Source: Candidatus Electrothrix sp. GW3-4
GTDB taxonomy: Bacteria > Desulfobacterota > Desulfobulbia > Desulfobulbales > Desulfobulbaceae
Reading direction: 5' to 3'
Assembly (NCBI RefSeq): GCF_037902255.1
Contig: NZ_CP147990.1
Coordinates: forward strand, 4,140,001 to 4,172,000
Length of the DNA: 32,000 nucleotides
In this document: positions 3,766-32,000 of the stretch, one piece after another
Numbering within the stretch: the stretch's first letter is position 1
How the letters are laid out: each line of letters begins with the position of its first letter
Made by a program: the position numbers and the translations under genes
The notes under the pieces: model-generated
Told to the model about the DNA's origin: nothing
The model's database searches: none
The model's input: only the letters and a program-made list of their open reading frames with translations

Positions 3766-3828
3766 ATCATACGTCCTTTTTTTGAGCGGATAACGAGGAA
3801 AGCAACATGTGTTTCAGATTCTCTCAGC

Positions 3829-4371: not shown

Positions 4372-4635
4372 ACAGAATAAGTTGTTATTTACAGTTTAGT
4401 TTCCAGCGCAAATGTAAATATGCTCTGGAAACAACGAAGCAAATAACCCATTCTGTCGTTCATGGAGCTTCCTGTCAACAAAATCCGCTCTTTTTCACCC
4501 TTATATTCCAATATTCTTTATTTTTTCACCTCTTCCAAGTCCCCTGTGGTCTCAGCTATGACCATTACCTAAAAGTATATCCGCCATAGAGTCTTTTGCA
4601 AGTCAGATGCCCAATTTATCTGCATCAACCCCCTC

Positions 4636-6462: not shown

Positions 6463-6760
6463 GACAATTTTGACTGAGGTGCTCTTGCGGATTTACCCGA
6501 TGACTACATTTTGAAAAAAGAGAGCAATTCTTCGCTGTCCTGTCATCAACTATGACCTGAGATTTCTGGTAAAAAAAAACACCCTATGGTAATCTATGTA
6601 TCTTGGTGCAATAAAAAAATAGCCTGGAAAGCCGCGTAGCTCTGCTCGCCCGTCCCCCTGTTCAGGGACCCCTCCAGACTGACAAGCCCGAGACGGACAA
6701 TTCCTGCTGGCCTGTTTATGGGAAGAATATTTCCTCAAAAATCCGACGAGAGGTCTCAGT

Positions 6761-11152: not shown

Positions 11153-12714
11153 TTCAGCTGGCTGCGTAAAAGTAAAAACCGTGAAAGATATAAATTTTCA
11201 AGCTGTTCCTGCAACTTCCTGAGCAGAACCATCAGATTCATGACCAGGAAGATACAGTTGATCCATGCTTCAGAGGTTCTCTGAAGTTTTGCCCGGATGT
11301 AGTTGAGTCGGTAGCCGTTTTTTCCTTGGCCAAATTTCCCCTCAATGGGGATCCGTTCTCGACTATCCCGAATTCGTTGTGCTTTCAGTTCCCGAAGACG
11401 TTCTTTGTTTTCTTCTGTCTCTTTCGGGGACCTGCCCAATCGTTTACCACCAAATCGAATACCTTTCTCTTTGAGATATTTACGGTTTTCTCTTGTTCCG
11501 TAAATCTGATCAGCCAGTACGACTGCCGGATAGTAACCATTCCGGCGCTTGTAACTCTCCACTTGCTCACGCAAATCCGTGCCTTCGTTGAAGGCATCCC
11601 AACCAATATGATCGACAAAAGCCAAACCATCGACCATGCTCACGCTGAGTTTGGCACCGAACTCCACATTTTTACCTGCTTTCCCACGAACTATCGGTCG
11701 TACATGAGGTTGGGCAATGGAAACAATTCGGTCATCGCAGCGTCGTTTTCGTTTTTTATACATCTCATCCTGCTGGCGATACACATGCTGAATGATCCAA
11801 TACTGTCGTTGTTGCTGATGGGGAAGTGGAAAAGGTGCCGTTTCAACATTGTCAAGCAACTCATCAATATATCGCAGATTTCTTCGGATGTACTGTAATT
11901 GCTGCCGAAGTCCGCGCCGCAGAATTTTTCGGCCTGGTTTCTTTTTCTTAGCCAGATTCAGGTAGTTTTTACGGGCAAGTCTCCGATATGTTCTGGGCTT
12001 TTTGGCGTAGTCACTCTGTTTGTACAGATCATCAATCAGCTGCTCGGAAATCTCACGAGCTTCGTTGAGTAAACTCAGATCAGTCGGGTAACGAATCGCT
12101 TGCTCAGCAACCGTTGCATCGACAAGCATTTTTCCCTTATTTTCAACGGGCTCTTCCTGACTCTCATCCTCTTTTTCGTCTTCATTTGCCGTACTTTTCT
12201 TTGAGAGAGCAAGTTTTTCCAAAATCACTTCTTCAAAAGCAGAAAAAACATCTTTTCCCATGCGCTTGCGAATTTCAACAAACAGGCTGGGAGCTAGAGG
12301 TCGCTTGTCTTGAAAACAAGAAAATCCAACAAAATATTGAAGATAGGGATTCTCCTGGATCTGAAGTACGGTTTCTTCATCACTGAGCGTCAACTTGTGC
12401 TTAATGATTAACGCGCCGATCACCAATCTGGCATCTTTGGCTGGTCGTCCTTGATGCGGGTCCAAAGTTCGATAATATCTGATGGCGAACTCATCCCACG
12501 GAATAACTTTATGCCATTTGATCCATCTGTTTTCAGGGTTCAGTTTACCTCCAAACGGAAGGCTGAATCCTTCAAGTGTAAGCTGTCTGTCACTGGTGTA
12601 CCTGATCATGTGCATGCCTTATGAGGGGGTGAACGTCAAAAACATGCATATTTTACAATATTTTTACAACTTTTTCATTTAAAATCAGTGCACTGAGGCT
12701 TTTTAAGGGCAATC
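11059..12714 (-). mobile_element. IS5/IS1182-type insertion sequence (about 1.66 kb) with imperfect terminal inverted repeats and a 6-8 bp target duplication
   Basis: The direct repeat tatctaga occurs at 11051-11058 and 12715-12722. The last two bases (ga) could instead belong to the IS end, so the boundaries are uncertain by about 2 nt. The ends share an inverted CCT(c/t)AAAAAGC core (left ...catcctcaaaaagc, right gctttttaaggg...). A single DDE transposase ORF fills the element. Confidence 0.85.
11065..12615 (-). CDS. DDE transposase, IS5/IS1182 type (InsH-like N-terminal DUF772 domain + DDE_Tnp_1)
   Basis: A 516-aa ORF. The N-terminus FSLPFGGKLNPENRWIKWHKVIPWDEF...GRPAKDARLVIGALIIKHKLTLSDEETVLQIQENPYLQYFVGF is typical of the InsH N-terminal domain. 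The catalytic signature is LVDATVAEQAIRYPTD ... VVLADQIYGT ... RIPIEGKFGQGKNGYRLNYIRAKL. Confidence 0.9.
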   Translation of the reverse strand: MHMIRYTSDRQLTLEGFSLPFGGKLNPENRWIKWHKVIPWDEFAIRYYRTLDPHQGRPAKDARLVIGALIIKHKLTLSDEETVLQIQENPYLQYFVGFSCFQDKRPLAPSLFVEIRKRMGKDVFSAFEEVILEKLALSKKSTANEDEKEDESQEEPVENKGKMLVDATVAEQAIRYPTDLSLLNEAREISEQLIDDLYKQSDYAKKPRTYRRLARKNYLNLAKKKKPGRKILRRGLRQQLQYIRRNLRYIDELLDNVETAPFPLPHQQQRQYWIIQHVYRQQDEMYKKRKRRCDDRIVSIAQPHVRPIVRGKAGKNVEFGAKLSVSMVDGLAFVDHIGWDAFNEGTDLREQVESYKRRNGYYPAVVLADQIYGTRENRKYLKEKGIRFGGKRLGRSPKETEENKERLRELKAQRIRDSRERIPIEGKFGQGKNGYRLNYIRAKLQRTSEAWINCIFLVMNLMVLLRKLQEQLENLYLSRFLLLRSQLNHIIARFLAFFEQMPRQVLQYCLYERLAF

Positions 12715-12945
12715 TATCTAGAAAATAATTTAACAACAGGGGCCTTTAACCAGCAGCGACTGGAAATACTGACCCTTCTTTCTTCCCAACTTGCTATTTC
12801 CATTAAAAACTCTCTCTTATACAATCAACTGGAGGTAAAGGTCGCTGAAAGAACCCGTGCCTTACAGCAGGAGATAGGGGAACGTAAACGCGCTGAAGAA
12901 AAAGCAAACTCTGCCAGCAAGGCAAAGAGCGATTTTCTCTCCAAT

Positions 12946-14310
12946 ATGAGCCATGAATTTCGAACCCCGCTCAATGTTATCCTCGGGTTTGCCCAAATTC
13001 TGGAACGGGATCACACCATCAGCAAAGAATCCCAGGAGGAGGTATCAACAATCCGCCGCAATGCCCAGCATCTCGTCACCCTTATTAACGAGGTACTGGA
13101 CCTTGCTAAGATTGAATCTGGTCAGGCGACCTTAGATAAATCAAGTTTTGATCTGGATAACTTTCTCGAATCTCTCAAAGAGACCTTTCATCAGCAGGCA
13201 CTGGACAAGGGATTATTTTTTCATATACAAAAAGATGAAAACCAACTTCGCTATATCAAGACTGATGAGGGAAAACTCCGGCAAATTCTTATTAACCTGC
13301 TGGGCAACGCCTTTAAATTTACGAAAACAGGCGGTATTTCCTTACGCGTACGCTCAGCAAAGGAGGAAGGAGATATCCAGATGCTTCACTGTGAAGTTGA
13401 AGATACCGGCATAGGCATTAATCCAACACACCAGAAAAAAATCTTTGCCCCCTTTGTTCAGTCTTCAGCAAGCGTGGATCAAAGCGTTGGTACCGGTTTA
13501 GGGCTTTCCATTACCCAGCAATTTATTGAGTTGATGGGAGGAAATATTGCAATAACCAGTACACCCGGTATAGGATCGACTTTTCGCTTCAAGGTCTCCA
13601 TAGAACAATCTGAACACACAGAGATACAAAGGAGCTCCCGTTCTCTGCGGGTTATAGGTCTTGCTCCGGGACAGAAAATATTTCGCCTCCTTATTGTAGA
13701 AGATGTCCTTGAAAATAGGAGAATCCTGGTTAAATTATTTAACAGTATTGGCTTCAGGGTAAAAGAGGCCTCCAACGGGGCCCAAGGGGTTGAAATATGT
13801 CAAACCTGGTATCCTGATCTCATCTGGATGGACATACGCATGCCAGTTATGGACGGTTATGAGGCAACCCGACAGATAAGAAAAACAAAGATGGGCAAAG
13901 AAGTAGTTATTATAGCCCTGACTGCTCAAGCATTTGGGAATGAACGAAAAAAAACACTCAGAGCTGGCTGTAATGATTGTATCAGTAAGCCATATATGGA
14001 GGAAGAGCTTTTCGCAACCATGAAAAAGCACTTGGGCATTCAATTTATTTATCAGGACGAAGACAAGAAGAAGCAGAGTGATTCAGCTGAACAAGCCAGT
14101 GGTGTCCTTGATCCAAAAATCATTGATAAGTTGCCCGAGGATATGAGGAGTGCGTTACTTGAAGCAACAGCCCAACTAGACCAGGAACGCTTTTTTACCG
14201 TTCTGGAGAAACTTCCTCCCCTTCATAAAAAAATAGCTACCGCTTTACAAGTATTGGCAGAGAACTATCAGTTCGAGGAAATTGAACATATTCTTGGGAG
14301 AAAACAATGA
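12946..14310 (+). CDS. 3' fragment: HisKA - HATPase_c - receiver (REC) - C-terminal helical tail of the interrupted hybrid kinase
   Basis: It has the H-box SHEFRTPLN, an N-box LINLLGNAFKFT, a G1 box EDTGIGI and a G2 box GTGLGLSI. The REC domain runs LLIVEDVLENRR...WMDIRMPVMDGYE...ALTAQ...SKP. The ATG at 12946 sits two codons before the phospho-His and is probably an ORF-caller artefact. The homologous frame is open back to 12715. Confidence 0.85.
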   Translation: MSHEFRTPLNVILGFAQILERDHTISKESQEEVSTIRRNAQHLVTLINEVLDLAKIESGQATLDKSSFDLDNFLESLKETFHQQALDKGLFFHIQKDENQLRYIKTDEGKLRQILINLLGNAFKFTKTGGISLRVRSAKEEGDIQMLHCEVEDTGIGINPTHQKKIFAPFVQSSASVDQSVGTGLGLSITQQFIELMGGNIAITSTPGIGSTFRFKVSIEQSEHTEIQRSSRSLRVIGLAPGQKIFRLLIVEDVLENRRILVKLFNSIGFRVKEASNGAQGVEICQTWYPDLIWMDIRMPVMDGYEATRQIRKTKMGKEVVIIALTAQAFGNERKKTLRAGCNDCISKPYMEEELFATMKKHLGIQFIYQDEDKKKQSDSAEQASGVLDPKIIDKLPEDMRSALLEATAQLDQERFFTVLEKLPPLHKKIATALQVLAENYQFEEIEHILGRKQ

Positions 14311-15392
14311 CAGAGAGCCATATTCAAGGGGATATTCTGATTGTCGATGATTCCCCGGAAAATCTTAAGCTCTTGGCCAAAATACTCACTGCAAATAATT
14401 TCCAGGTCAGAGGGTCGAACAGCGGTCGCTATGCGCTGAAATCCATCAAAAAGAAGCTGCCTGATCTTATTCTCCTTGATATTAATATGCCCGAAATGAA
14501 CGGCTATGAGGTATGCCGCCAACTGAAAAATGATCCTTCAACGGCTGATATTCCGGTCATCTTTATCAGTGGCTTAAAGGACAATGAAAGCAAGATAAAG
14601 GGTTTTGAGGCTGGCGGGGTCGACTATGTCACCAAACCTTTTCAGGCTCAGGAGATACTGGCCAGAGTTCGGACCCATTTATCCATGAGCCGTATGAAGC
14701 ACCATCTGGAGGAAATAGTCCAGGAACGGACAGCCGAGCTTCAGGAGGTCACTGAGCAGATCAAGGCAGCTCTCAAAGAGAAAGAAGTCCTGCTGAAAGA
14801 GATTCATCATCGGGTGAAAAATAATATGGCGATGATGTCCTCCTTTCTCCAGCTTCAGATCCAGCAGGTGACAGATCCTGAGGCCTTACAACGCTTCATT
14901 GACACGAGAAGCCGTATCTACACCATGGCCCTTGTCCATGAAAAGCTCTACCACACCGAAGACTTGAAAAATATAAATATCAAGGAGTTCATTCATGATC
15001 TGGCTGAATCCCTGATATTTTCCTACACGACCTCTCCTCACCAGATAACACTGAACACAGATATCACAGATGTTTCCCTGAATCTTGACCGAGCAATTCC
15101 CTGCGGGCTCATTATTAACGAACTCGTGTCCAATGCCCTGAAACATGCCTTCCCAAAGAACAGGAAGGGAATAATCACCATTGGTTTTGCTACCGACTCT
15201 GAAGAGAAATATATCCTCACTGTCAGTGATGATGGAGTGGGCTTACCCGAGCAAATAAATATTCAGGAAACAGATTCCATTGGCCTGAAGTTAGTCCCTC
15301 TTTTATCAAGCCAACTCGATGGAGAATTTGCAATCGAAGAGGGGCAGGGTGCCTCGAAAAAAGGAACCACCTTCAAAATCGCCTTTCCTTGA
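14307..15392 (+). CDS. response-regulator receiver fused to a HisKA_2/HWE-type histidine kinase (REC - HisKA_2 - HATPase_c)
   Basis: The REC domain reads ILIVDDSPENL...ILLDINMPEMNGYE...FISG...TKP. The HisKA_2 H-box is EIHHRVKNNMAMMSSFLQLQ. The ATPase boxes are NELVSNALKHAF and SDDGVGLP. Its ATG overlaps the upstream stop (ATGA at 14307-14310). Confidence 0.9.
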   Translation: MTESHIQGDILIVDDSPENLKLLAKILTANNFQVRGSNSGRYALKSIKKKLPDLILLDINMPEMNGYEVCRQLKNDPSTADIPVIFISGLKDNESKIKGFEAGGVDYVTKPFQAQEILARVRTHLSMSRMKHHLEEIVQERTAELQEVTEQIKAALKEKEVLLKEIHHRVKNNMAMMSSFLQLQIQQVTDPEALQRFIDTRSRIYTMALVHEKLYHTEDLKNINIKEFIHDLAESLIFSYTTSPHQITLNTDITDVSLNLDRAIPCGLIINELVSNALKHAFPKNRKGIITIGFATDSEEKYILTVSDDGVGLPEQINIQETDSIGLKLVPLLSSQLDGEFAIEEGQGASKKGTTFKIAFP

Positions 15393-15658
15393 AACGAGCA
15401 GAGGACACCTTCTTCGCCCCCCGTACGTGGGGGAATAACCTGTCGTTCGCCCCTGTTTTCCCCCATTTCCGTTGCTGACGAAACATAAAAATTCTCCCTG
15501 TCTTTATCTATTTTCTCAATAACATAACGACAAAAAGAATTTTTTTTGGGAAGTATGATACACTTTTTCAGCTTGGTACTTCACGACCAACAGATGAGGA
15601 AGATCAGGAGTTGTGTCGCGATTACTGGCTATACAAAGCAAGACCTTGCAACAGCTCG

Positions 15659-16342
15659 TCAGACCATCCTTTCCTGCGACCAATCATTATGCTCAAAATC
15701 TGCATGATCTGGTTTTTTCGGCTTAATCTCTTCCATGCGCTGGCGGAGCCAAACCATCACCTTGTCAAACTCAGAGCTCAGCTCCTGCATGGCCTTACCC
15801 CGATGGCTGACCGTACTCTTCTCTTCCATGCCGACCTCAGCAAAAGTCTTGCCAAAATCCTCGTAATAAAAGACCGGATCATAGCCAAATCCTGCCTCTC
15901 CCTGACGCTCTTCTGTAATTTTCCCTTCACAGCTGCCTTCCCAGGTCAGGGCAGGACCGCCGGGGGTGGCTAAAGAAAGAACGCATTGAAAACGGGCGCT
16001 ACGGTCTGTCTTTCCTTTCATCTCTTGCAGGAGCTTTTCACAATTATCCCAGTCAGTAGCATTCTCGCCGCTGTAGCGGGCGGAATAGACGCCAGGGGCC
16101 CCATCAAGGGCATCAACGACCAGGCCGGAATCGTCAGCAAGGGCTGGAACGCCGAGGACCCGTGCGTAATGATAGGCCTTTTTATAGGCATTCTCATCAA
16201 AGGTCTCGCCATCCTCAATAACATCGGGCAAGGGACCGTAATCCTTCAGGCATTTCACTTCAATGGGGAAGTTCTTTACCAACTCTTGAAATTCTTTGAC
16301 CTTATTCTGGTTATTCGTGGCAAGAACAATAATGTTGTTCAT
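15659..16342 (-). CDS. rdgB: non-canonical purine NTP pyrophosphatase (RdgB/HAM1 family) with a C-terminal extension of roughly 25-30 aa
   Basis: The motifs are IVLATNNQNKVKEFQ, DDSGLVVDALDGAPGVYSARY, FGYDPVF and SHRGKA. At 227 aa it is longer than the typical length of about 200 aa. Confidence 0.9.
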   Translation of the reverse strand: MNNIIVLATNNQNKVKEFQELVKNFPIEVKCLKDYGPLPDVIEDGETFDENAYKKAYHYARVLGVPALADDSGLVVDALDGAPGVYSARYSGENATDWDNCEKLLQEMKGKTDRSARFQCVLSLATPGGPALTWEGSCEGKITEERQGEAGFGYDPVFYYEDFGKTFAEVGMEEKSTVSHRGKAMQELSSEFDKVMVWLRQRMEEIKPKKPDHADFEHNDWSQERMV

Positions 16343-16380
16343 CAGTTTATCTCCATAAAAAAGGGATCAGAGGATTGTTT

Positions 16381-16959
16381 TTATTTTTTGTAGTCCCGGC
16401 CCAACGGGCCGGGATGGATTTTTTTCCGCATCTTCTTATCATACCGCTCCTGCTCACTATAGATACACCCACAATACGGCTGGCGATACAGATCCATTGC
16501 AATGGATTGATCAATCCCCTGCTGCCAGCCCTCACGAAAATCCTGATAGAAAAACTGTACGGCAAACTTCCGCGCCAATGCCTCTGATTTTTCCTTAATC
16601 ATGGCATGGCGCTGGTATTTTGAGTAGAGCAGGGTGGTTGTGAAGGCGTCAAAGCCTCCTGCAGCTGCCCGTTCCGCAACAACTTCAAGACGCATATCGT
16701 AGCATATGGAGCACCGCCTGTTTTCATGCAAAACAACCTGGCGAAGATATTCTGTTAAACCGTAGTTACGGTCAATATCGACCTTGAAATCTTTCTTTTC
16801 AGAAAATTCAACCAATGCCTTAATCCGCCGTTTAAACTCACGAAAGGGATGAATATTGGGATTAAAAAAATATCCTTTGACCTCATGCCCCTGGCTGCGC
16901 AGCACCTCCAACGGATAGGCTGTACAGGGACCGCAGCAGACATGGAGCAACACCCTCAT
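16381..16959 (-). CDS. queH: epoxyqueuosine reductase QueH (DUF208 family)
   Basis: The N-terminus [14 protein letters not shown], together with [11 protein letters not shown] and [10 protein letters not shown], gives the conserved Cys pattern of DUF208/QueH. The ORF is 192 aa. Confidence 0.8.
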
Positions 16960-18584
16960 GACCTCACCTTGAACTGCTTCGGATCAATACCGTAATTATG
17001 TATTTTATAATTGATAATCCGAAGACTTGTCTCCAGGCGGGCCGCTGCCTTGGTTTGGTTACCGTTGGTATGCTTGAGTGCATCAATAATCAACTCCCGC
17101 TCAAAGCTCTCCACTGCACCGGATAAAGAGAGCGGACTGTCAGTGCTCACAGAGTCAGAGCTTTGTAAGGTAGGAGGAAGGTGAACCGAGCTTATTGTAT
17201 TGGAGTCACAGATAAGGACAGCTCGTTCCATGCAGTTTTGTAATTCACGAACATTGCCCGGCCAGTGATATTTTATCAATAAGTCAATGGCGGTGGTCGA
17301 GATTCGTTCAATCCGCTTATTATTTTCTTTGCAATATTGCTCGAGAAAATATTCCGCCAGCAGAAGGATATCTGTCCTCCTCTCCCTGAGAGGAGGAAGG
17401 TGAACAGGAAAGACATTGAGTCTGTAATAGAGATCCTCCCGGAAGAGGCCTTCAAGGACGGCTTCCTCAAGATTACGATTGGTGGCCGCAACCAAGCGAA
17501 TATCCGCTTTGATAATTTCAGTTCCCCCGAGACGCTGAAAGCAGCGTTCCTGAATCACATTGAGCAGTTTTATCTGGACAGTGGTGCTTATCTCACCGAT
17601 TTCATCTAAAAAGAGGGTTCCACCTTCTGCTAATTCAAACCGCCCTTTCTTTCGTTGCTCGGCCCCGGTAAAGGCCCCTTTCTCATGGCCGAATAATTCG
17701 CTTTCTAAAAGGTTTTCCGGGAGAGCTGAGCAGTTAACCACCAAAAAGGGTTTGTCTGCCCGACGAGAATTATGATGTAAGGCCTTGGCAACTAAGGACT
17801 TACCTGTTCCAGATTCACCCCGCAGCAGAACCGTGGCATTGGAGTCCGCAACTCGATGGGCCATTTCAAAGACTTCCTGCATCCGTGAAGAATTTCCAAT
17901 AATATCACTGAGGCGATTCTTGGCGGAGAGCTCTCTGCGCAGGCGTTGATTTTCCTGCTGGAGCGCCTCTTTTTCCCTGTTGATAACCTGCACCCTGTGT
18001 ACGGCCTGGGCGATAAGGGCACTTACAATAGTGAGAAAACGCAAATCCTGCTCTGATTGCAGACCAAATTCGTTTTCATAGTAACGAGCAACAGACAAGG
18101 CTCCTATGGACAGATTATCTGACCGGTTATGGAGGTCCTGCGTAAAGATTTTTTGTTTGGAACTTTCAAAAGTAACCTTAATAGGTACGCAGATAAAGGA
18201 ACTTTTCTTTTTCTTCTCGTCATTCCTAATCCCGGTTCTATTGAGAAATAACGGCTCTTCTCCGATTCTGGGGACAATAACCGGTTCTCCGGTGGAAACA
18301 ACTCGACCGGTAATTCCTTCGCCTAATTTATATTTCCCTTTTTTTTGCGCTGTTGCCGTAATCCCGCAGGCAACCTCAATCTCCAGCTCCCTTGTCAGTG
18401 GATTAACGATAGTTACGGTACCGTTTTCCATTTTTTTCATATCTGCCAGCACCCGAACCACCCTGTTCAAACTCTCCTGAAGGTCGGTCCCGGCAGCAAG
18501 AATTTTCGTAATTTCGTAAAGACAGGAGAGATCTTGACGCGCAAGTTCTTGATTTTTTATTGAAGTATCTAAGTCAGTGGTCAT
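16956..18584 (-). CDS. sigma-54-dependent transcriptional activator (GAF - AAA+ sigma-54 interaction domain - Fis-type HTH)
   Basis: It has Walker A GESGTGKS, the GAFTGA motif in [13 protein letters not shown], Walker [11 protein letters not shown], and [10 protein letters not shown]. The C-terminal HTH reads [21 protein letters not shown]. The N-terminal region of about 200 aa is GAF-like. Its stop overlaps the queH start (ATGA). Confidence 0.9.
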
Positions 18585-18661: not shown

Positions 18662-18747
18662 GGAGGAATGGCCGAGTGGTTGAAGGCGGCGGTCTTGAAA
18701 ACCGTTGTACGAAAGTACCGTGGGTTCGAATCCTACTTCCTCCGCCA
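18662..18747 (+). tRNA. tRNA-Ser (anticodon UGA), CCA encoded
   Basis: The acceptor stem pairs GGAGGAA with TTCCTCC. The anticodon loop is cTTGAaa, with TGA at 18696-18698. It has a long variable arm (tgtacgaaagtaccg), a T-loop GGTTCGAATCC, discriminator G and CCA. Confidence 0.9.
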
Positions 18748-18780
18748 CTTTGATATTACGTTCTTGTTTTGCAAGACAGA

Positions 18781-18873
18781 GGAGAGATGACCGAGCTGGC
18801 CGATGGTGCTCGCCTGCTAAGCGAGTGTGGGGGTCAAACTCCACCGAGGGTTCGAATCCCTCTCTCTCCGCCA
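18781..18873 (+). tRNA. tRNA-Ser (anticodon GCU), CCA encoded
   Basis: The acceptor stem pairs GGAGAGA with TCTCTCC. The anticodon loop is ctGCTaa, with GCT at 18816-18818. It has a long variable arm (tgtgggggtcaaactccacc), a T-arm GAGGGTTCGAATCCCTC, then G and CCA. Confidence 0.9.
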
Positions 18874-24332: not shown

Positions 24333-26516
24333 ATGGGGAAAGATATGAGCAGCAATATCTCTCAGCAGCTCCTAACAGAGACCGCTGAAACCGTCTTGGC
24401 ACGCCGTTATTATCTTAAGGACGGCAACGGCAATGTGCTGGAAAATTGGGACGCACTCTGTCGGCGAGTTGCGGATGCCGTCGCATCCGTCGATAGCGAA
24501 GAGAAAGATTACGAGACTATCCGGGAAGATTTTTTTGCCATGATCCACCGCCTCGACTTCCTTCCCAACTCTCCCTGCCTTATGAATGCAGGAACAGACC
24601 TCGGCCAGCTCTCTGCCTGTTTTGTTCTCCCTGTGGATGACTCTATGGATGGAATCTTCACCTCTATCCGCAATGGTGCCCTGGTCCATAAAACCGGGGG
24701 CGGGACAGGCTATTCCTTTTCCCGGCTTCGTCCCAAAAATTCTGCTGTCCGCTCCACCCAAGGTGTTGCTTCCGGGCCCCTCAGCTTTGCAGCGGTTTTT
24801 GATGCCGCCACTGAGACCATTAAACAAGGTGGAAAACGTCGTGGGGCCAACATGGGGGTATTACGGATTGATCATCCTGATATTATAGACTTTATATCAG
24901 CAAAAGAAGATCAAACCAAATTTACCAATTTTAACTTTTCTGTGGCAATAACCGATGCCTTCATGGAAGCAGTCAAAACGGACAGTGATTATGACCTGAT
25001 TGATCCTTCCGATAATCGGGTTGTCAACTCCTTGAGCGCGGTAAAGGTCTTTGATAAAATTATTGATCTTGCCTGGCATAACGGTGAGCCTGGAGTCCTC
25101 TTTATTGATACAGCCAACCGAAGCAATGCTACCCCGCAGCTGGGAGAATTTGAGGCAACCAACCCCTGTGGTGAGCAATGGTTACTTCCTTATGAATCCT
25201 GCAACCTCGGCTCCATCAACCTGGGACAGTATGTCCACGAGGGGAGGGTGGATTTTGAACGCATTGGCAAGACCGTGAAAACCGCAGTCCGTTTTCTCGA
25301 TAATGTGATTGACTGTAATCGTTTTCCTATCCCAGAGATAGCTGAGATGACACGAAAAACGAGAAAAATTGGGTTAGGTGTTATGGGAATGCATGACATG
25401 CTCATCCAGCTGGGACTTGCCTATGGGGAAGAAGTGGGGAGAGAGGCCTCAGCTGAGGTGATGCGCTTTATTCGCCAGCAAGCTGAGGCGGCCTCCATTG
25501 ATCTGGCTGCAATGAAAGGGTCCTTTCCTGCCTATGATCCGAAGATCAATGATTACCCTGCCCGCCGCAATGCAGCACTGACCTCCATTCAGCCCACAGG
25601 GACCGTCTCCATGATTGCTGATTGCGCCTCCGGCTGCGAACCGTATTTTTCCGTGGTCATGGAAAAAAATGTTATGGATGGAGACCGGTTCCTGATGGTT
25701 AATAAGCATTTTGAGGCCGTGGCCCGCAAAGAGGGCTTTTTCTCCGATGCCCTGATGAAGAAAGTTGCTCGCACCGGGACCGTTGTGGGTCATAATGAAA
25801 TCCCACAAAAATGGCAAAATATCTTCCGTACAGCCCAGGATATCACTCCAGAAGAACATATTCAGATGCAGGGGGCCTTACAGACCAATGGGGTCGACTC
25901 TTCCATCAGTAAGACCATTAACCTGCCAGACTCGGCCAGCAAAGAGGATGTACGATTCTCCTATATGCTCGGTTTTGAATTGGGCTGCAAGGGGCTGACA
26001 GTCTACCGAGACGGCTCCCGAGACTCCCAGGTCCTCAGCACAGGCCGCTCTGAGGAGAAAAAAACAGCCACGGTTTCCAATCAGGGCATCCTGCATAAAA
26101 AAGAACTGCCCGATGTCCTCAGCGCTAAGCGCTACCGCCTGAAAGACGCCAACGGCAATACCATTTATATTATTGTCTGCTTTGGAGAAAACGAGACACC
26201 GATGGAGGTCTTTGCCAAGTTCCCCTTTGACAATCGGGTGGATCTGAAGGACAAGTCCACTATGTGGACAACCACCTGCCGTCTGGTCTCCTTGGCCTTG
26301 CGCTACCAGATCCCTATGGAGGAGGTTATTAAACAACTTGATCGCTCCAGCGGACATATGCTTGACTTACCCGCCCAATTGGGTAAACTGCTCAAATCGT
26401 TTATGGCCGGAACCCGGAACGGGTTTTCGTCTGCATGCCCGGAATGTCCTGGAACCTTGGTCTTTGAAGAGGGCTGCGAGGTCTGCCGGGAGTGCGGCTA
26501 CTCCAAGTGCTCCTGA
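24333..26516 (+). CDS. nrdJ: adenosylcobalamin-dependent (class II) ribonucleotide reductase NrdJ with a C-terminal Cys-rich zinc ribbon
   Basis: It carries the RNR barrel signatures LSACFVLPV.DSM, GGGTGYSFSRLRP, KQGGKRRGANMGVL, the finger loop TNPCGEQWLLPYESCNLGSINL, and SISKTINLP. There is no class I tyrosyl-radical tail or class III glycyl-radical tail. The C-terminus is CPECPGTLVFEEGCEVCRECGYSKCS. Confidence 0.9.
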   Translation: MGKDMSSNISQQLLTETAETVLARRYYLKDGNGNVLENWDALCRRVADAVASVDSEEKDYETIREDFFAMIHRLDFLPNSPCLMNAGTDLGQLSACFVLPVDDSMDGIFTSIRNGALVHKTGGGTGYSFSRLRPKNSAVRSTQGVASGPLSFAAVFDAATETIKQGGKRRGANMGVLRIDHPDIIDFISAKEDQTKFTNFNFSVAITDAFMEAVKTDSDYDLIDPSDNRVVNSLSAVKVFDKIIDLAWHNGEPGVLFIDTANRSNATPQLGEFEATNPCGEQWLLPYESCNLGSINLGQYVHEGRVDFERIGKTVKTAVRFLDNVIDCNRFPIPEIAEMTRKTRKIGLGVMGMHDMLIQLGLAYGEEVGREASAEVMRFIRQQAEAASIDLAAMKGSFPAYDPKINDYPARRNAALTSIQPTGTVSMIADCASGCEPYFSVVMEKNVMDGDRFLMVNKHFEAVARKEGFFSDALMKKVARTGTVVGHNEIPQKWQNIFRTAQDITPEEHIQMQGALQTNGVDSSISKTINLPDSASKEDVRFSYMLGFELGCKGLTVYRDGSRDSQVLSTGRSEEKKTATVSNQGILHKKELPDVLSAKRYRLKDANGNTIYIIVCFGENETPMEVFAKFPFDNRVDLKDKSTMWTTTCRLVSLALRYQIPMEEVIKQLDRSSGHMLDLPAQLGKLLKSFMAGTRNGFSSACPECPGTLVFEEGCEVCRECGYSKCS

Positions 26517-26554: not shown

Positions 26555-27076
26555 ATGGCGAGAATACAGCGAAATCAATCCTGTCCCTGCGGATCAGGGA
26601 AAAAACATAAACATTGTTGTTTAGTCCGGCAACAGGCTGGACACGACCCTTCTCCCCTGCAACAGATGAAGGTCTCATTACTGGGAGAGATAGCGAAGAT
26701 CCAGCAGGCAGCTGCCGACTTCAAAACTCGGGTTTATCAGCTCGGTGTCTTTATTTTCTTCAGTATGGAAAATGGAGACGCCTGGGTGCTGGAGGTCACA
26801 GACAGCGATGCTGTCCAGGTGGCTGCCCAGGGGCAACCGCATAAGCCACCTGTAACCGAAGATAACGAACGGATTGAGGTGGACTGGAGCCATAGTTTTG
26901 CTCTTCAGAAGAAACAGCTTTTTATAACAGCGTACAAGGATGGCAAGGAGCAAGAAATTATTGCAGCTCCGACCCACCAGATCAGCGCTGCTCTTCGCCG
27001 AATCATAAAGCTGTACCCTAAAGAACTGCTCAACAAGGTTCACATACGAGACGAAGAAGACGGAGCATCTGCCTAG
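26555..27076 (+). CDS. SEC-C motif domain protein (hypothetical)
   Basis: The N-terminus RNQSCPCGSGKKHKHCC is a canonical SEC-C metal-binding motif. I did not recognise the remaining 150 aa or so. Confidence 0.65.
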   Translation: MARIQRNQSCPCGSGKKHKHCCLVRQQAGHDPSPLQQMKVSLLGEIAKIQQAAADFKTRVYQLGVFIFFSMENGDAWVLEVTDSDAVQVAAQGQPHKPPVTEDNERIEVDWSHSFALQKKQLFITAYKDGKEQEIIAAPTHQISAALRRIIKLYPKELLNKVHIRDEEDGASA

Positions 27077-27192: not shown

Positions 27193-27450
27193 ATGACCAG
27201 AGATGAATTACAAGAGCGTATCCTCACGATTCTGACAGAGGATTTTGAGTTTGAAACCCCTGGCTTGGATGATAATCTCCGCGATGATCATAATTTTGAC
27301 AGTATCGATGCTATCGAATTGCTTGGAAAAATAGAGCATATCCTCGACACCACCCTCACCAGAGAGGAAAAGGAGCAGGCTATGGAGATCAGAACGATCA
27401 ATGACATTCTTGATTATATAGAGAAGATAACAAGCTCTCGTGCCGAATAA
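27193..27450 (+). CDS. acyl carrier protein (dedicated, non-housekeeping context)
   Basis: An 85-aa acidic protein. The phosphopantetheine attachment motif is DHNFDSIDAIELLGKIE, with the Ser in DSID. It is the first gene of a tightly packed operon. Confidence 0.85.
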   Translation: MTRDELQERILTILTEDFEFETPGLDDNLRDDHNFDSIDAIELLGKIEHILDTTLTREEKEQAMEIRTINDILDYIEKITSSRAE

Positions 27451-27483
27451 CTCTCCTCCTCCTTTCTTACCCGGCTTACCTTC

Positions 27484-28716
27484 ATGAAAAGACGTGTCGT
27501 CATCACCGCCTGTTCCGCAATTACCCCCATCGGCTACAATAAACAAGACATCATAGACAGTCTTCTCCAGGGGAAATCAGGTGTGGCCCCGCTTCGAGAC
27601 GATGGCCTGCTGACCAAGCATATCCACTCTCGGGTCTTCGGGACCGTAGGATATCCTATTGAGTATAATTTTTCCCGCTACTTCCGTAAAACCATGGGCC
27701 CAGTGGCCTATTATGCCTGTCAGGTTGCTAAAGACGTCTTGGAGCAGTCAGGCTTAGACCAGAATTTCATTACCTCAGGCCGCCTCGGTGTAGCCTTTGG
27801 TTCAATCCACGGTAGCCCAACGGTGCAACGTGATATCTACAAGGCCTATTTCAACGAACTCGACACAAAATTTTCCTCCATCGGGGCTGTAGACTATCTC
27901 CGTTCGATGGTCCATACCACGGCAGTGAATATAACCCGTATGTTCGGTATTACTGGACGGGTCATCTCCTCATCCACGGCCTGCACCACCAGTAGCCAAT
28001 CCATCGGCTACGGCTATGAGGCGATTAAATTCGGTATGCAGGATGCCATGCTCTGTGGTGGGGCCGATGAATACGATACCACCACTGTGGCTGTGTTCGA
28101 TAACCTGCTGGCCTGCTCTGTCAAATATAACGAGACGCCGGAATGCACCCCTCGGCCCTTTGACAGCAAACGGGATGGCCTGGTTGTTGGCGAGGGCGGC
28201 GGTGCTGTGATGCTGGAGGAATATGAGTTCGCGAAAAAACGCGGCGCAACTATCCTGGGAGAGATCATCGGCTTTGCCTGCAATAATAACGGCGGTGATC
28301 TGATCCTGCCTAATCACGACGGCATTAAAGCAACCCTGAAGCTCGCCCTTGAAAATGCGGAAATCACGCATGAGGAGGTGGATTTCATCAGTGCCCATGC
28401 CACAGCGACCAAGATGGGCGATGTCATTGAGGCCCAGGCCATGCATTCTGTATACGGCGATAAACCGCTGGTCAGTGGTCTGAAGAGCTATATGGGCCAT
28501 ACTATGGCAACCTGTGGGGCCATAGAACTCATTCTCACCCTCTACATGATGGAACAGGGCTTTATCGCCCCCACGTTGAATCTGGACAAGGTTGACGAAC
28601 GCTGCGCCATGCTCTGCCATTGCCAGGAAGTCACGGACGCGAACATCAATATAGCAGCCATTCAGAATTTCGCCTTTGGCGGGGTCAATACCTGTGTGTT
28701 GGTGAAAAAGGTATAG
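27484..28716 (+). CDS. beta-ketoacyl-ACP synthase, KAS I/II (FabB/FabF-like) family
   Basis: The Cys-His-His triad is visible in context: SSSTACTTSSQSIGYG (active-site Cys), ISAHATATKMGD (His) and KSYMGHTMATCGAIE (His). The C-terminus is NFAFGGVNTCVLV. Confidence 0.9.
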   Translation: MKRRVVITACSAITPIGYNKQDIIDSLLQGKSGVAPLRDDGLLTKHIHSRVFGTVGYPIEYNFSRYFRKTMGPVAYYACQVAKDVLEQSGLDQNFITSGRLGVAFGSIHGSPTVQRDIYKAYFNELDTKFSSIGAVDYLRSMVHTTAVNITRMFGITGRVISSSTACTTSSQSIGYGYEAIKFGMQDAMLCGGADEYDTTTVAVFDNLLACSVKYNETPECTPRPFDSKRDGLVVGEGGGAVMLEEYEFAKKRGATILGEIIGFACNNNGGDLILPNHDGIKATLKLALENAEITHEEVDFISAHATATKMGDVIEAQAMHSVYGDKPLVSGLKSYMGHTMATCGAIELILTLYMMEQGFIAPTLNLDKVDERCAMLCHCQEVTDANINIAAIQNFAFGGVNTCVLVKKV

Positions 28717-29459
28717 TGTTGAGCCGAGGCATCGACTTCTGCATAACCCTTCTCTACTGGGTCTGGTTCATCTTCGGCTTTCTTTGTATCTTTTCCTGGC
28801 GATATGCTGCGGCCCTGTTCAGCTCCGACTCTGAACGCACTTTCCAGGGGCTGAACAGTTGTTTTTTCCAAATCCTCCTCAGTATCATTGGCCGAACCGC
28901 TCCAGGACAAAAAATATGCATAGATGACGAGGTCGCGGCGATTCGTTCCTCGGTGATTATCTGCAATCACCTTTCTTACCTGGACCCTCTGCTGCTCATC
29001 GCCCTTTTTCCTCGCCACCGCACCATTGTGAAGCCCCGTTTTTTCATGATGCCGATCTTCGGTCAGATCATAGCCAAGTCCGGCTATCTACCGGGCGACG
29101 GAGGAGGGCGTTTTTCCCGCCTCATGATTCACCAGATGGACAGCATGCCCAAATTTTTACAAGCTGGAGGTAACCTCTTTGTCTTTCCAGAGGGCACACG
29201 AAGTCGCAGTGGAGAAATTGGGACTATGCAGCAAGGGGCCATAAAAATCGCCAGGCTCCTTGGCGCGCCCATTTATCTTCTCCAATTGCGCAATACGGAG
29301 AAACTCTTTCCTCCGGGAAAATTTCTTTTTGCGACGAGAAAAAAAAACAGAATTACCCTCAAGGTATTGCAACGCTTGGAAATCGATGGTGCATCTCCTC
29401 CTTCCTCACCCCAGCTGATGCAGAAAATAGAGGAGGCGTATCGTAGCGCAGAGCCATGA
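28716..29459 (+). CDS. membrane-bound lysophospholipid/1-acyl-glycerol-3-phosphate acyltransferase (PlsC/LPLAT family)
   Basis: It has the H(x)4D catalytic motif in ICNHLSYLDPLLL and the FPEGTRS motif in VFPEGTRSRSGE. An N-terminal hydrophobic segment reads ITLLYWVWFIFGFLCIF. I chose the GTG start at 28716, which overlaps the KAS stop by 1 nt. The ATG at 28620 in the ORF track would overlap the KAS gene by 97 nt. TTG at 28719 is also possible. Confidence 0.8.
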   Translation: MLSRGIDFCITLLYWVWFIFGFLCIFSWRYAAALFSSDSERTFQGLNSCFFQILLSIIGRTAPGQKICIDDEVAAIRSSVIICNHLSYLDPLLLIALFPRHRTIVKPRFFMMPIFGQIIAKSGYLPGDGGGRFSRLMIHQMDSMPKFLQAGGNLFVFPEGTRSRSGEIGTMQQGAIKIARLLGAPIYLLQLRNTEKLFPPGKFLFATRKKNRITLKVLQRLEIDGASPPSSPQLMQKIEEAYRSAEP

Positions 29460-30952
29460 AAGTCATCCTGATATCCATGCCCGATGTTGCTCCCATTCTC
29501 ATCCATGAGGCGGCTGTCCACCTGCCCAATCACGGCATTGCCAGCGTGGGGGGAAATATTGACGCAGAGCATGAGGTCTGGCTCATTGATCTGGTCCGTA
29601 AACGCCGCTCAATCAAAAAATATCTGACCAAGGTTATCAGAAAACTACAACCAGACCTTGTCGGCCTATCGGCTATGGCCTGGCAGTATGACACCTGTAT
29701 TCGCATTGCCCGGCTCCTCAAGAGCTTGCAGCCAGAGGTTAAGGTAGTTATCGGCGGCTACCACGCCACCCTCATGCATGAGGAAATTGCTCTCTCCCCG
29801 GAGGCACAATGGCTTGATTTTATGATTCGGGGGGAAGGGGAGGAGGCCTGCCGTCGTTTGGTCAACGCCTTGGCTGGTCAGGATGAGCTGTCTGCAATCC
29901 CCTCGCTCTCCTATAAAAAAGACGGTCACTTTGTCCATAATCCCAGAGGAGATAACCTGGATTTGAGCACCTTGAAGCTGCCTATCCGGGATAAACGGCG
30001 TCTGACCTGGGGCTACCATCTGGTCCACTCTAAGATTGAGGTCATCGAGACCTCGCGGGGCTGTACTCGTTCATGCAATTTCTGTTCAATGAAACATATG
30101 TACGGGCGGAGCTTCAGGACCTTCCCCATTGAACGCGTCTTGCAGGACATTGATGCTATCTATTTTCAGAAAAAAACACGCTGCATCTTTATCACGGACG
30201 ATAATATCGTCCTGGATCAGGCCCGACTTATGGAGCTCTGCGACGCGATCATAGCCAAGGGGTATAAAGGGTTAAAACTCTTTGTCCAGGCCGATTGTAT
30301 CAGCATAGCCAAGAACGAGGCAATGGTGGCCAAGATGGCAACAGCAGGCTTTGCTTCGATCTTTCTCGGCATTGAAAATGTCTCCCGGCAAAATTTGAGC
30401 ACGGCCTGTAAGGGGGATATTATTGCGCCAGCAAAAAAGGCCGTTGAAAACTGTCATAAATATGGGATAATGGTTATTGGTGGCCTGATCTTCGGCTTTC
30501 CTGGGGATACCGAGATATCTATTAAAGAAAATTACGAATTTTTTAAAAATCTTCAGTGCGATGCCGCCTATTGTCAAATTCTGACCCCATATCCAAAGAC
30601 CGGGATGCGTGAACACCTTCTTGAGCAAGGCTTGGTCACCAACCCAACGGATTACAAAAAATACAATGGCCTATGGGCAAATGTACGAACAAAGTACTTA
30701 GATTCCGCCCAGCTCCATTACCAATTTTGGTATCAGCGCCAGGTTGTGCTGGGCTGGTGGAATCCCTCATCACAAACAGGGAAACAGGGGCGGCTCTGGA
30801 TATTCATCTGGCGCTTCCTTTTTAAACCCTTTTTGAAGCTCCGCTACGCCCTGCATTTTAAAAAAGACGACTGGCCAGCCCGTTATCAACAGGAGATCGA
30901 CCGCCTGAACAAGATGAACAGGTTTACTGATCTTGAAGAGTTCGGAGAATAA
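29456..30952 (+). CDS. B12-binding-domain radical SAM enzyme (class B radical SAM)
   Basis: An N-terminal Rossmann-like B12-binding domain (KVILISMP...LVGLSAMAWQYD...VVIGGYHATL) is followed by the radical-SAM cluster motif ETSRGCTRSCNFCS (CxxxCxxC). The ATGA overlap with the upstream gene indicates translational coupling. Confidence 0.85.
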   Translation: MKVILISMPDVAPILIHEAAVHLPNHGIASVGGNIDAEHEVWLIDLVRKRRSIKKYLTKVIRKLQPDLVGLSAMAWQYDTCIRIARLLKSLQPEVKVVIGGYHATLMHEEIALSPEAQWLDFMIRGEGEEACRRLVNALAGQDELSAIPSLSYKKDGHFVHNPRGDNLDLSTLKLPIRDKRRLTWGYHLVHSKIEVIETSRGCTRSCNFCSMKHMYGRSFRTFPIERVLQDIDAIYFQKKTRCIFITDDNIVLDQARLMELCDAIIAKGYKGLKLFVQADCISIAKNEAMVAKMATAGFASIFLGIENVSRQNLSTACKGDIIAPAKKAVENCHKYGIMVIGGLIFGFPGDTEISIKENYEFFKNLQCDAAYCQILTPYPKTGMREHLLEQGLVTNPTDYKKYNGLWANVRTKYLDSAQLHYQFWYQRQVVLGWWNPSSQTGKQGRLWIFIWRFLFKPFLKLRYALHFKKDDWPARYQQEIDRLNKMNRFTDLEEFGE

Positions 30953-31992
30953 TGCAAAAGACGTACAACCTTGAATTTACAGAGCAGGAGATTCGCGAGG
31001 CAGTTGCTGCCGACCAACTGCTCTCTATAGAAATTGAGTTCAGTCGGGTCTGTAATTTCCGTTGCTCCTACTGTTATGTTGAGGGGCAGGAGACATGGAA
31101 GAATGAACTCTCTCGGGAAGAGATTAAGGACGTTATCCTCCAGGCCAAGGCCTTGGGTGCCCGAAAAATTATTATCCTGGGCGGTGAGCCTTCTATCTAT
31201 CCCCAGCTCCCGGAAATACTCCATTTCATCGGTCAGGAAGGCCTGGAAATAGAGATGTTCACCAATGGCTCCGGGATTACTCAGGAGCTTGCTGATGTTC
31301 TTGCTCAGGAAAAGGTTCGGGTTGCCCTGAAACTCAATTCCCAGAACGAGGAGCTTCAGGATACGCTTGCCGGTAAACAAGGTGCCTACCAGGCTATCCA
31401 ACGAGCCTTGGGCTGCTTGCGCGAGGCAGGATATCCTGGTAAAGGACTCTACCTGGCCATGAGCACGGTCATTTGCCAACAGAATATTGAAGAGCTCCCG
31501 GCAATCTGGCAATGGCTGCGAGAGCAGGCAATTGAGCCGCTCTTTGAAGTCCTCACCCCCCAGGCCAATGCCTCAGAAAATACCTGGCTTGGGGTGAGTC
31601 CTGAAGAATTGAAAACGCTCTTTACCCAGCTCGCTGACCTTGATCGGAAAAAATTCGGCCGCGATTGGGAGCCTCAGCCTCCGCTGGTGGGTAACAGATG
31701 CATGCGGCACCAGGTTTCCTGCCTGGTGACCTCGAACGGCGATATTATGCCTTGCGTTGGGGTGACCATTCCCCTGGGGAATATCCGTAACAACACCCTT
31801 GCCCATATTCTCCATAATAGTGAAGAGATACAGAATTTAAAGAATTATCGGGAGACCATAAAGGGGGCCTGTCGAACCTGCGAAAAGGCTGAAGAATGTT
31901 ACGGCTGCCGGGGCGCAGCCTATCAGCTCACTGGAGACTACCTTGCCTCCGACCCAACCTGTTGGCGTAACGCCACATTGACAAAATGTTAA
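30952..31992 (+). CDS. radical SAM enzyme with a C-terminal SPASM/twitch auxiliary-cluster domain
   Basis: The radical-SAM motif is EFSRVCNFRCSYCY, followed by GGEPSIY. The C-terminal Cys-rich region is CMRHQVSCLVTSNGDIMPCV...CRTCEKAEECYGCRGAAY. Its ATG overlaps the upstream TAA by 1 nt. The gene ends 8 nt before the window edge. Confidence 0.85.
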   Translation: MQKTYNLEFTEQEIREAVAADQLLSIEIEFSRVCNFRCSYCYVEGQETWKNELSREEIKDVILQAKALGARKIIILGGEPSIYPQLPEILHFIGQEGLEIEMFTNGSGITQELADVLAQEKVRVALKLNSQNEELQDTLAGKQGAYQAIQRALGCLREAGYPGKGLYLAMSTVICQQNIEELPAIWQWLREQAIEPLFEVLTPQANASENTWLGVSPEELKTLFTQLADLDRKKFGRDWEPQPPLVGNRCMRHQVSCLVTSNGDIMPCVGVTIPLGNIRNNTLAHILHNSEEIQNLKNYRETIKGACRTCEKAEECYGCRGAAYQLTGDYLASDPTCWRNATLTKC

Positions 31993-32000
31993 GACTGAGT

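Follow-up and report, generated by a model that had tools for sequence, protein, structure and literature searches.

Near the end of a 32,000-nucleotide stretch of the Candidatus Electrothrix sp. GW3-4 genome (contig NZ_CP147990.1, positions 4,140,001 to 4,172,000; the whole stretch is called the window), five adjacent genes encode an acyl carrier protein (ACP), a β-ketoacyl-ACP synthase (KAS), a membrane acyltransferase (LPLAT), and two radical S-adenosylmethionine (radical-SAM) enzymes, one with a cobalamin (B12)-binding domain and one with a SPASM domain. On balance, we favor the reading that these genes form the opening arm of a Ca. Electrothrix operon of 13 genes, lying within a Desulfobulbales-wide supercluster related to the aryl-polyene (APE)/flexirubin lipid clusters of the type II polyketide synthase-fatty acid synthase (PKS-FAS) kind with radical-SAM enzymes added, and that they work by the mechanism proposed below. 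The five genes do not make up a pathway on their own but belong, as one arm, to a radical-SAM-decorated APE/flexirubin-like envelope-lipid supercluster. The gene content, homologies, motif integrity, synteny, and conserved translational coupling from which we argue are directly observed. The five genes lie in the window as follows:

27193-27450, + strand: ACP1, an ApeF-like carrier protein of 85 aa with a DSID serine motif (PF00550, 31.6 bits)
27484-28716, + strand: KAS1, an ApeR-like, homodimer-type β-ketoacyl-ACP synthase of 410 aa (PF00109, PF02801)
28716-29459, + strand: LPLAT, an ApeD-like PlsC-family membrane acyltransferase of 247 aa with a GTG start (PF01553, 67.1 bits)
29456-30952, + strand: B12-rSAM, a class B (cobalamin-binding) radical-SAM enzyme of 498 aa (PF02310, PF04055)
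30952-31992, + strand: SPASM-rSAM, a radical-SAM enzyme of 346 aa with a full SPASM domain (PF04055, PF13186)

All five open reading frames at 27193-31992 are co-directional, and gene calling done independently on an identical Logan contig returned the same starts and boundaries. A 33-nt gap, read from the sequence, separates ACP1 from KAS1, and the other junctions overlap: the KAS1 stop and the LPLAT start by 1 nt (taGTG, 28714-28718), LPLAT and B12-rSAM by 4 nt (ATGA, 29456-29459), and B12-rSAM and SPASM-rSAM by 1 nt (taATG, 30950-30954). The catalytic motifs of all five proteins are intact. A sequence scan of the block gave no internal promoter or terminator signals above the shuffled expectation. 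No cobalamin or SAM riboswitch precedes the operon, the Rfam scan of the whole window having returned only two tRNA-Ser genes. Both radical-SAM proteins are closest to those of other Candidatus Electrothrix (E. scaldis and E. aestuarii, 94% each; Rat3, 90%; E. communis, 88%), which places the window in a marine cable bacterium of the Desulfobulbaceae.

The arrangement is no chance one, as the block is conserved across the order. In a scan of one genome per species, 166 relatives of B12-rSAM were found, and the best 80, whose loci we analyzed, share 68-76% identity with it and all belong to Desulfobulbales. The genera with relatives include Desulfobulbus, Desulfocapsa, Desulfopila, Desulforhopalus, Desulfogranum, Desulfofustis, and Hydrosulfovibrio, and Desulfurivibrionaceae are also represented. 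All five genes occur in the same order in 63 of the 80 species-level loci; 14 of the other 17 are cut by contig ends and three are exceptions. Of 76 loci, 65 retain the ATGA overlap of LPLAT and B12-rSAM. Orthologs are on average 75% identical for ACP1, 80% for KAS1, 52% for LPLAT, 72% for B12-rSAM, and 71% for SPASM-rSAM, and their alignments show strong purifying selection. The first-pass annotation had described five tightly packed co-directional genes with three overlaps, taken them for a single functional unit in a lipid context, and expected the operon to continue past nt 32000. The junctions, the retained order and ATGA overlap, the flanking genes for lipid biosynthesis and envelope lipid assembly, and eight further genes downstream bear this out. 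In a search beyond the order through 50%-identity representatives, the five-gene block as such was met only in Desulfobulbales; at this cluster level the B12-rSAM family comprises one representative at 57% and about 60 at 37-45%. The 57% homologue (P0121; locus L090, 10001-11494 of a 2.6-Mb contig) has no ACP, KAS, LPLAT, or SPASM neighbor. Two Desulfobulbales metagenome-assembled genomes (loci L056 and L076) carry a B12-rSAM ortholog at 69-70% identity with no detectable ACP, KAS, LPLAT, or SPASM neighbors despite enough flanking sequence; they are possibly natural 'module-minus' genomes, or misassemblies.

The eight genes past nt 32000, which bring the operon to 13 (Logan contig; Ca. Electrothrix scaldis, CP138355.1), encode a FabA/ApeI-like dehydratase, a second carrier protein (ACP2), two radical-SAM proteins of ~340 aa, two KAS, a 4HBT thioesterase, and a PS-DH dehydratase, and are followed by toxin-antitoxin genes on the opposite strand. 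The ApeI-like dehydratase scores 30.7 bits to PF22818, over the cut-off of 28.5. KAS1, KAS2, and KAS3 (410-421 aa) all keep the Cys-His-His triad, and thus none of the three is a chain-length factor. This second arm adjoins the five genes in only about a dozen loci, at a distance or in an orientation that varies, so the two arms are separable modules.

In the majority of loci, seven genes stand directly before ACP1: those for LolA, a 270-aa protein, a third B12-binding radical-SAM enzyme (B12b), an AMP-ligase, a FakA-DegV fusion, a GT2 glycosyltransferase, and an LpxL-like acyltransferase. The best match of LolA is flexirubin LolA2 (90.8 bits, under the cut-off of 125). On the 3' side of the five genes there is often a fourth B12-binding radical-SAM enzyme together with a StlD/DarB-family ketosynthase (KS; 521 bits, over the cut-off of 450), whose DarB equivalog score is 431, under the cut-off of 550. 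This ketosynthase is paired with the B12-binding enzyme and no DarA is recognizable, an arrangement suggestive of an anaerobic route to a moiety of the resorcinol or cyclohexanedione type. Desulfobulbus rhabdoformis DSM 8777 has one supercluster of ~35 kb with seven radical-SAM genes (L097, JAFFQA010000002.1, 1-21269, and L046, 12594-15041). Its order is ApeP-like dehydratase, ketoreductase, LolA, B12-binding radical-SAM enzyme, AMP-ligase, FakA-DegV, GT2, LpxL-like acyltransferase, the five genes, another B12-binding radical-SAM enzyme, and the DarB-family KS. A divergent upstream arm adds another ACP, a 721-aa KS (ketoacyl-synt and Ketoacyl-synt_2 domains), a further B12-binding radical-SAM enzyme, and the second arm described above. 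Two sequences 89-90% identical to Desulfobulbus B12b (P0413 and P0415) are deposited under the purple sulfur bacteria Allochromatium palmeri and Thiorhodococcus mannitoliphagus, and reflect either assemblies contaminated with a Desulfobulbus from co-culture or a recent transfer.

The first three proteins of the block resemble APE proteins. The top PDB matches of KAS1 are 7F27 (AbApeR, 315 bits) and 4EWG (PpApeR, 309 bits), both identified as ApeR ketosynthases of APE clusters (PMC8358021); FabB scores ~230 bits. KAS1 is 41% identical to E. coli ApeR and is of the ApeR type, though its NF006587 score of 399.6 bits is under the cut-off of 470. Its Cys-His-His triad is intact and invariant in orthologs. 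Of the ApeR pocket residues, Tyr135 and Phe202, for which aryl stacking has been proposed, correspond to the invariant Y138 and F205 of KAS1, and Phe118 and His268 are not retained. In ACP1, the serine motif FDSIDA is invariant across 65 orthologs, and among the E. coli carriers ApeF (28.9 bits) scores above ApeE (22.3 bits). LPLAT has the hallmarks of the PlsC/LPLAT family, namely a PF01553 domain (67.1 bits against a cut-off of 23), HX4D (NHLSYLD) and FPEGTR motifs that are invariant in orthologs, and a membrane anchor, predicted as an N-terminal hydrophobic transmembrane helix at residues 5-34. It is 23% identical to E. coli ApeD (58.5-59.7 bits by blastp and tblastn). LPLAT is not, however, a canonical PlsC (TIGR00530, 64.6 bits against 102.95).

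We compared the wider neighborhood gene by gene with the annotated E. coli APE cluster and searched ~95 loci, with 10 kb on each side, with the Ape proteins by tblastn. According to Grammbitter et al., the APE core set consists of ketosynthases (apeO/R), ACPs (apeE/F), a chain-length factor (CLF; apeC), dehydratases (apeI/P), a ketoreductase (apeQ), and a transporter (apeM). Within the Electrothrix operon, KAS1 corresponds to ApeR (41%), LPLAT to ApeD (23%, ~60 bits), the FabZ-like dehydratase to ApeI, and the 4HBT thioesterase to ApeK; the two carriers show a reciprocal pattern, ACP1 with ApeF and ACP2 with ApeE, at weak scores. In relatives, the AMP-ligase corresponds to ApeH (this ligase is not in the Electrothrix operon), GT2 and the LpxL-like protein to the two halves of the fused ApeJ, and LolA to ApeL. 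E. coli ApeQ matches the ketoreductase at 48-56% identity in 13 loci. The ApeI-like and PS-DH dehydratases are part of the Electrothrix operon, and the ApeP-like dehydratase and ApeQ-like ketoreductase, which are in neither that operon nor the window, belong to the D. rhabdoformis-type supercluster. No lyase of the kinds that supply an aryl starter (ammonia-lyase or chorismate lyase) was seen in the Desulfobulbales loci. The radical-SAM enzymes, the FakA-DegV fusion, the DarB-like KS, and PS-DH are without APE counterparts.

These results revise the first-pass annotation in one respect. It had set the APE link aside for want of a dehydratase and a ketoreductase. Yet KAS1 is closest to ApeR, with LPLAT resembling ApeD and the ACPs ApeF and ApeE; an ApeI-like dehydratase, an ApeK-like thioesterase, and PS-DH lie immediately downstream; and D. 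rhabdoformis has ApeP-, ApeQ- (ketoreductase), LolA/ApeL-, ApeH-, and split-ApeJ-like genes immediately upstream. Of the lipid-tailoring pathway that it had proposed, the conserved lipid-tailoring unit stands, whereas the stand-alone five-gene pathway gives way to an APE-type scaffold with added radical-SAM enzymes. Since the tight ACP1-KAS1-LPLAT block adjoins the split ApeJ in most genomes, the best reading by homology and gene order is that the block would be a branch for an 'anchor acyl chain' in the manner of ApeF/ApeR/ApeD, with the two radical-SAM enzymes tailoring that chain. An independent metagenomic APE-like cluster with at least four radical-SAM genes was also found (L091, JGI Ga0619461_05952376, 2824-17644). 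It contains an aromatic ammonia-lyase, an AMP-ligase, GT2, an LpxL-like protein, MMPL, and an ApeI/P-like dehydratase, and its B12-rSAM relative (43% identity, 41% by tblastn) lies directly upstream of the ammonia-lyase and AMP-ligase. APE clusters decorated with B12-binding radical-SAM enzymes therefore exist outside Desulfobulbales.

B12-rSAM combines a B12-binding domain (PF02310, 63.3 bits against a cut-off of 32.1) with a radical-SAM domain (PF04055, 63.6 bits), and its CX3CX2C motif (CTRSCNFC) is invariant in orthologs. Its AlphaFold2 model is of high confidence (pLDDT 94.5), and in Foldseek comparisons this model matches TsrM, AprD4, MgmA, OxsB, TokK, and CysS at TM-scores of 0.57-0.71 and 15-19% identity. 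The B12 Rossmann domain, the CX3CX2C core, and the fold match to solved members confirm a class B architecture. Because TokK and CysS methylate pantetheine-tethered substrates, an ACP-bound substrate is, by analogy, plausible for B12-rSAM. The best NCBIfam match is BchE (TIGR02026), and its 166.6 bits lie so far under the cut-off of 481 that the name was rejected and the JGI product names 'anaerobic Mg-protoporphyrin IX monomethyl ester cyclase' are over-annotations; HpnR scores 117 bits. Whether the reaction is a methylation, cyclization, ring contraction, or dehydration cannot be read from the sequence.

SPASM-rSAM has both parts that define its family, a radical-SAM core (PF04055, 91 bits) and a C-terminal seven-cysteine motif (PF13186, 39.9 bits against a cut-off of 21.5); its CNFRCSYC motif and the seven C-terminal SPASM cysteines are invariant in 74 orthologs. 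Its AlphaFold2 model, at a pLDDT of 64.8, is poor and gives no more than generic fold matches. AhbD is the best NCBIfam match and NirJ2 is also among the best; the AhbD name was rejected on its curated cut-off (133.5 bits against 500). Tes (NF045702) is not among the best 25 of 92 family matches, and no archaeal lipid synthase is among the PDB matches.

The substrate, the sequence of reactions, what each radical-SAM enzyme does, and the product are inferred as follows. KAS1 would extend an acyl primer on ACP1 with malonyl units, while other enzymes, either the ApeQ/ApeP/ApeI-like ones encoded in the supercluster or housekeeping FabG and FabZ, would carry out ketoreduction and dehydration in trans. 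B12-rSAM and SPASM-rSAM would then modify unactivated chain carbons, either while the chain is bound to the ACP1 pantetheine or after its transfer to lipid, B12-rSAM most likely by C-methylation and SPASM-rSAM most likely by dehydrogenation or by C-C/C-O bond formation. LPLAT would esterify the product to a lysophospholipid, parallel to ApeD, which is proposed to carry an ApeF-borne conjugated fatty acid to sn-2 of lyso-phosphatidylglycerol. The second arm (ACP2, two KAS, two dehydratases, thioesterase, and two radical-SAM enzymes) would make a second acyl chain, and in most relatives GT2 and the LpxL-like protein (the split ApeJ) together with LolA would complete an envelope glycolipid and export it. 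The analogy is with Xenorhabdus, in whose APE lipids a conjugated C26:5 fatty acid occupies glycerol sn-2; by that proposal, C26:5 is assembled on ApeF and put onto lyso-phosphatidylglycerol by ApeD, after which ApeJ adds GalNAc and the ApeE-borne aryl polyene (10.1101/2020.12.19.423268). In E. coli apeD, apeJ, and apeR mutants, late, unattached intermediates accumulate.

Several observations weigh against this mechanism and against the APE relationship. The assignments of the ACPs to ApeE and ApeF stand at a weak 22-39 bits, and LPLAT is just 23% identical to ApeD. The chain-length factor ApeC, ApeM, ApeN, and ApeG were not found within 10 kb: E. coli ApeC is without a match in any fetched locus, so that the KS-CLF heterodimer of APE clusters is not found here, and ApeM (an MMPL/RND exporter) has no tblastn match in the window or in the ~95 loci with 10 kb on either side, an MMPL gene having been met in L091 alone. 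The GT2/LpxL/LolA/ketoreductase half is not adjacent to the operon and was not located in the window's own genome; when Electrothrix was searched for the LolA-to-LpxL half with B12b, the top 120 matches were all Desulfobulbus-type sequences of at least 81% identity. Some relatives of B12-rSAM (41-57% identity) stand alone among unrelated genes, so the family is not intrinsically tied to ACP and KAS partners. The chemistry proposed for both radical-SAM enzymes is a guess, because neither reaches any curated family cut-off, and these enzymes might act on the product of the second arm or on a resorcinol/aryl moiety and not on the ACP1 chain.

We weighed three other explanations. In one, which we consider unlikely, the block would serve an extended type of fatty acid synthesis yielding polyunsaturated fatty acids or C31:8/C31:9 hydrocarbons, or ladderane-like cyclization of a polyene, with the radical-SAM enzymes as anaerobic desaturases or cyclases. 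It draws on the synteny described by Rattray 2009 (PMC2649909), in which extended FAS clusters with radical-SAM genes are common to Kuenenia and Desulfotalea psychrophila, a member by taxonomy of the window organism's order, Desulfobulbales. The D. psychrophila loci contain radical-SAM genes, a phenylacetyl-CoA-ligase-like gene, a glycosyltransferase, and extra FabF paralogues, a description that the downstream rSAM3-rSAM4 pair and the KAS paralogues fit; C31:8/9 hydrocarbons were reported from this organism, and antiSMASH 'ladderane' calls are reported in Desulfobacterota. D. psychrophila yielded no ladderanes, however (PMC2649909). B12-rSAM is not a member of the anammox-type lipid family TIGR04072 (97.6 bits against a cut-off of 360, with its paralogues B12b and B12c at 46 and 62 bits), the operon is without a phytoene-desaturase-like gene, and anammox Cluster I has a mutated FabF and neither LPLAT nor SPASM, whereas all three KAS here have an intact triad. 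We regard as quite improbable the proposal that both radical-SAM enzymes modify an aryl/resorcinol head group or a polyene produced by other parts of the supercluster, perhaps replacing ApeB through anaerobic C-methylation of a ring or DarA through aromatization, with ACP1-KAS1-LPLAT as an ordinary anchor branch. The fetched loci do lack a homologue of the ApeB methyltransferase (within 10 kb), the 43% relative in L091 lies directly upstream of the aromatic ammonia-lyase and AMP-ligase, and in many loci a DarB-family ketosynthase is paired with another B12-binding radical-SAM enzyme where no DarA is recognizable. Against such a role, LPLAT and B12-rSAM are coupled through ATGA in the 65 of 76 loci mentioned above, the block stays whole also in loci where the DarB pair, the ligase, or the second arm is not next to it, and the Electrothrix operon has no ammonia-lyase or ligase.

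Finally, B12-rSAM and SPASM-rSAM could be a maturase set for a cofactor or for a ribosomally synthesized and post-translationally modified peptide (RiPP), merely placed beside fatty-acid genes. The nearest solved SPASM structures by sequence are indeed the peptide maturases SkfB (48 bits) and PqqE (47 bits), RiPP methylases (ApyD, rSAM_ocin_1) are among the NCBIfam near-misses, and in locus L095 a 41% relative of B12-rSAM is followed by a SPASM-rSAM in a glycosyl/radical-SAM cluster outside an FAS context. In the operon, however, there is no precursor-peptide open reading frame, RRE domain, protease, or exporter; the start and stop codons that overlap with LPLAT and KAS1 are conserved across the order; and the conserved genes on either side are all of lipid or envelope type. 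SPASM-rSAM begins its core at about residue 24 and has no N-terminal peptide-recognition extension, which argues against a RiPP role. Without a peptide context the RiPP reading was rejected, and a maturase set of either kind appears highly improbable.

Returning to the supercluster reading, we tentatively propose a further step, which we hold to be possible but doubtful: that Desulfobulbales, including cable bacteria, run radical-SAM chemistry (cobalamin-dependent C-methylation together with SPASM-type C-C/C-O bonding or desaturation) on a ketoacyl or polyene chain carried by an ACP or a phospholipid and so make an envelope lipid of novel structure. There is hardly a documented case of radical-SAM enzymes modifying lipids of the fatty-acid (ketoacyl) type, and a 2026 review names only the ladderanes (unproven) and Jaw5; if true, the new-lipid reading would give the first such pathway beyond these two. 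The cluster type was flagged as 'ladderane-like' in 2009 and has never been solved. Our literature search returned no paper on these genes in cable bacteria, nor on APE-type clusters with radical-SAM genes, in keeping with the first-pass annotation, which knew of no assigned function for the five-gene module. An APE-like scaffold joined to up to seven radical-SAM enzymes extends across this order of environmental importance, in sulfate reducers, sulfur disproportionators, and cable bacteria. Its product, if solved, would define new radical-SAM chemistry, explain the 'ladderane' biosynthetic gene cluster calls made outside anammox bacteria by genome mining, and possibly provide a lipid biomarker for Desulfobulbales in sediments. 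Cultivable hosts that carry the block are found in Desulfobulbus, Desulfogranum, and Desulfocapsa.

Elsewhere in the window, a 173-aa SEC-C-motif protein (26555-27076), seen only in Electrothrix loci, directly precedes ACP1. Just upstream of the operon lies a TSCPD-domain ribonucleotide reductase (24333-26516), which, from its domain layout, we presume to be of the cobalamin-dependent class II. A DDE transposase (DUF772 and DDE_Tnp_1_2; 11065-12615, - strand) may be an insertion, as it overlaps the 3' end of a gene for a 1463-aa protein with Ser/Thr-kinase, AAA, and GAF domains (6761-11152). In addition, a 535-aa protein (2158-3765, - strand) is built of MORN repeats over nearly its whole length (15 stretches, 440 bits), and two adjacent tRNA-Ser genes with anticodons TGA and GCT are located at 18662-18873 (+ strand).

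Among known systems, the class B enzymes (TokK, CysS, TsrM, MgmA/QCMT, OxsB, AprD4, BchE, and HpnR) share with B12-rSAM the N-terminal Rossmann B12 domain and the CX3CX2C TIM barrel, although its identity to solved members is only 15-19% and it falls under every curated cut-off. SPASM-rSAM has, like the non-RiPP SPASM enzymes (AhbD, NirJ, and anSME) and the SPASM enzymes Tes and Gms, which form C-C bonds in lipids, the full set of SPASM cysteines for two auxiliary clusters and no peptide-recognition domain; its presumed substrate, however, is a ketoacyl chain and not a tetrapyrrole or isoprenoid. With the anammox and Desulfotalea clusters (Rattray 2009; Dietl 2023), a precedent that the first-pass annotation had mentioned and that proved real (PMC2649909), the operon has in common a dedicated ACP, a FabZ-like dehydratase, extra FabF paralogues, and radical-SAM enzymes including B12-binding ones, the Kuenenia and Desulfotalea clusters being likened here by the description in that paper and by shared taxonomy. 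It differs from the anammox clusters in having no phytoene-desaturase-like gene and no mutated FabF, in a B12-rSAM outside TIGR04072, and in its LPLAT and SPASM genes, which are not part of Cluster I. Many relatives possess the StlD/DarB-family KS and LolA2-like LolA of the flexirubin/dialkylresorcinol clusters (DarA/DarB, LolA2), whereas the DarB pair is missing from the operon in the window and, where present, couples DarB to a B12-binding radical-SAM enzyme with no DarA seen. The likeness to APE clusters lies in the logic of two carriers and two acyl chains, in the coupling of LPLAT to a dedicated ACP, and in the homologues of ApeR, ApeD, ApeF/ApeE, ApeI, ApeK, ApeH, split ApeJ, ApeL, ApeP, and ApeQ. 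In contrast to those clusters, the Desulfobulbales cluster adds a FakA-DegV fusion, a DarB-family KS, and up to seven radical-SAM enzymes (four B12-binding, one SPASM, and two short), in a host that is a strict anaerobe or microaerophile.

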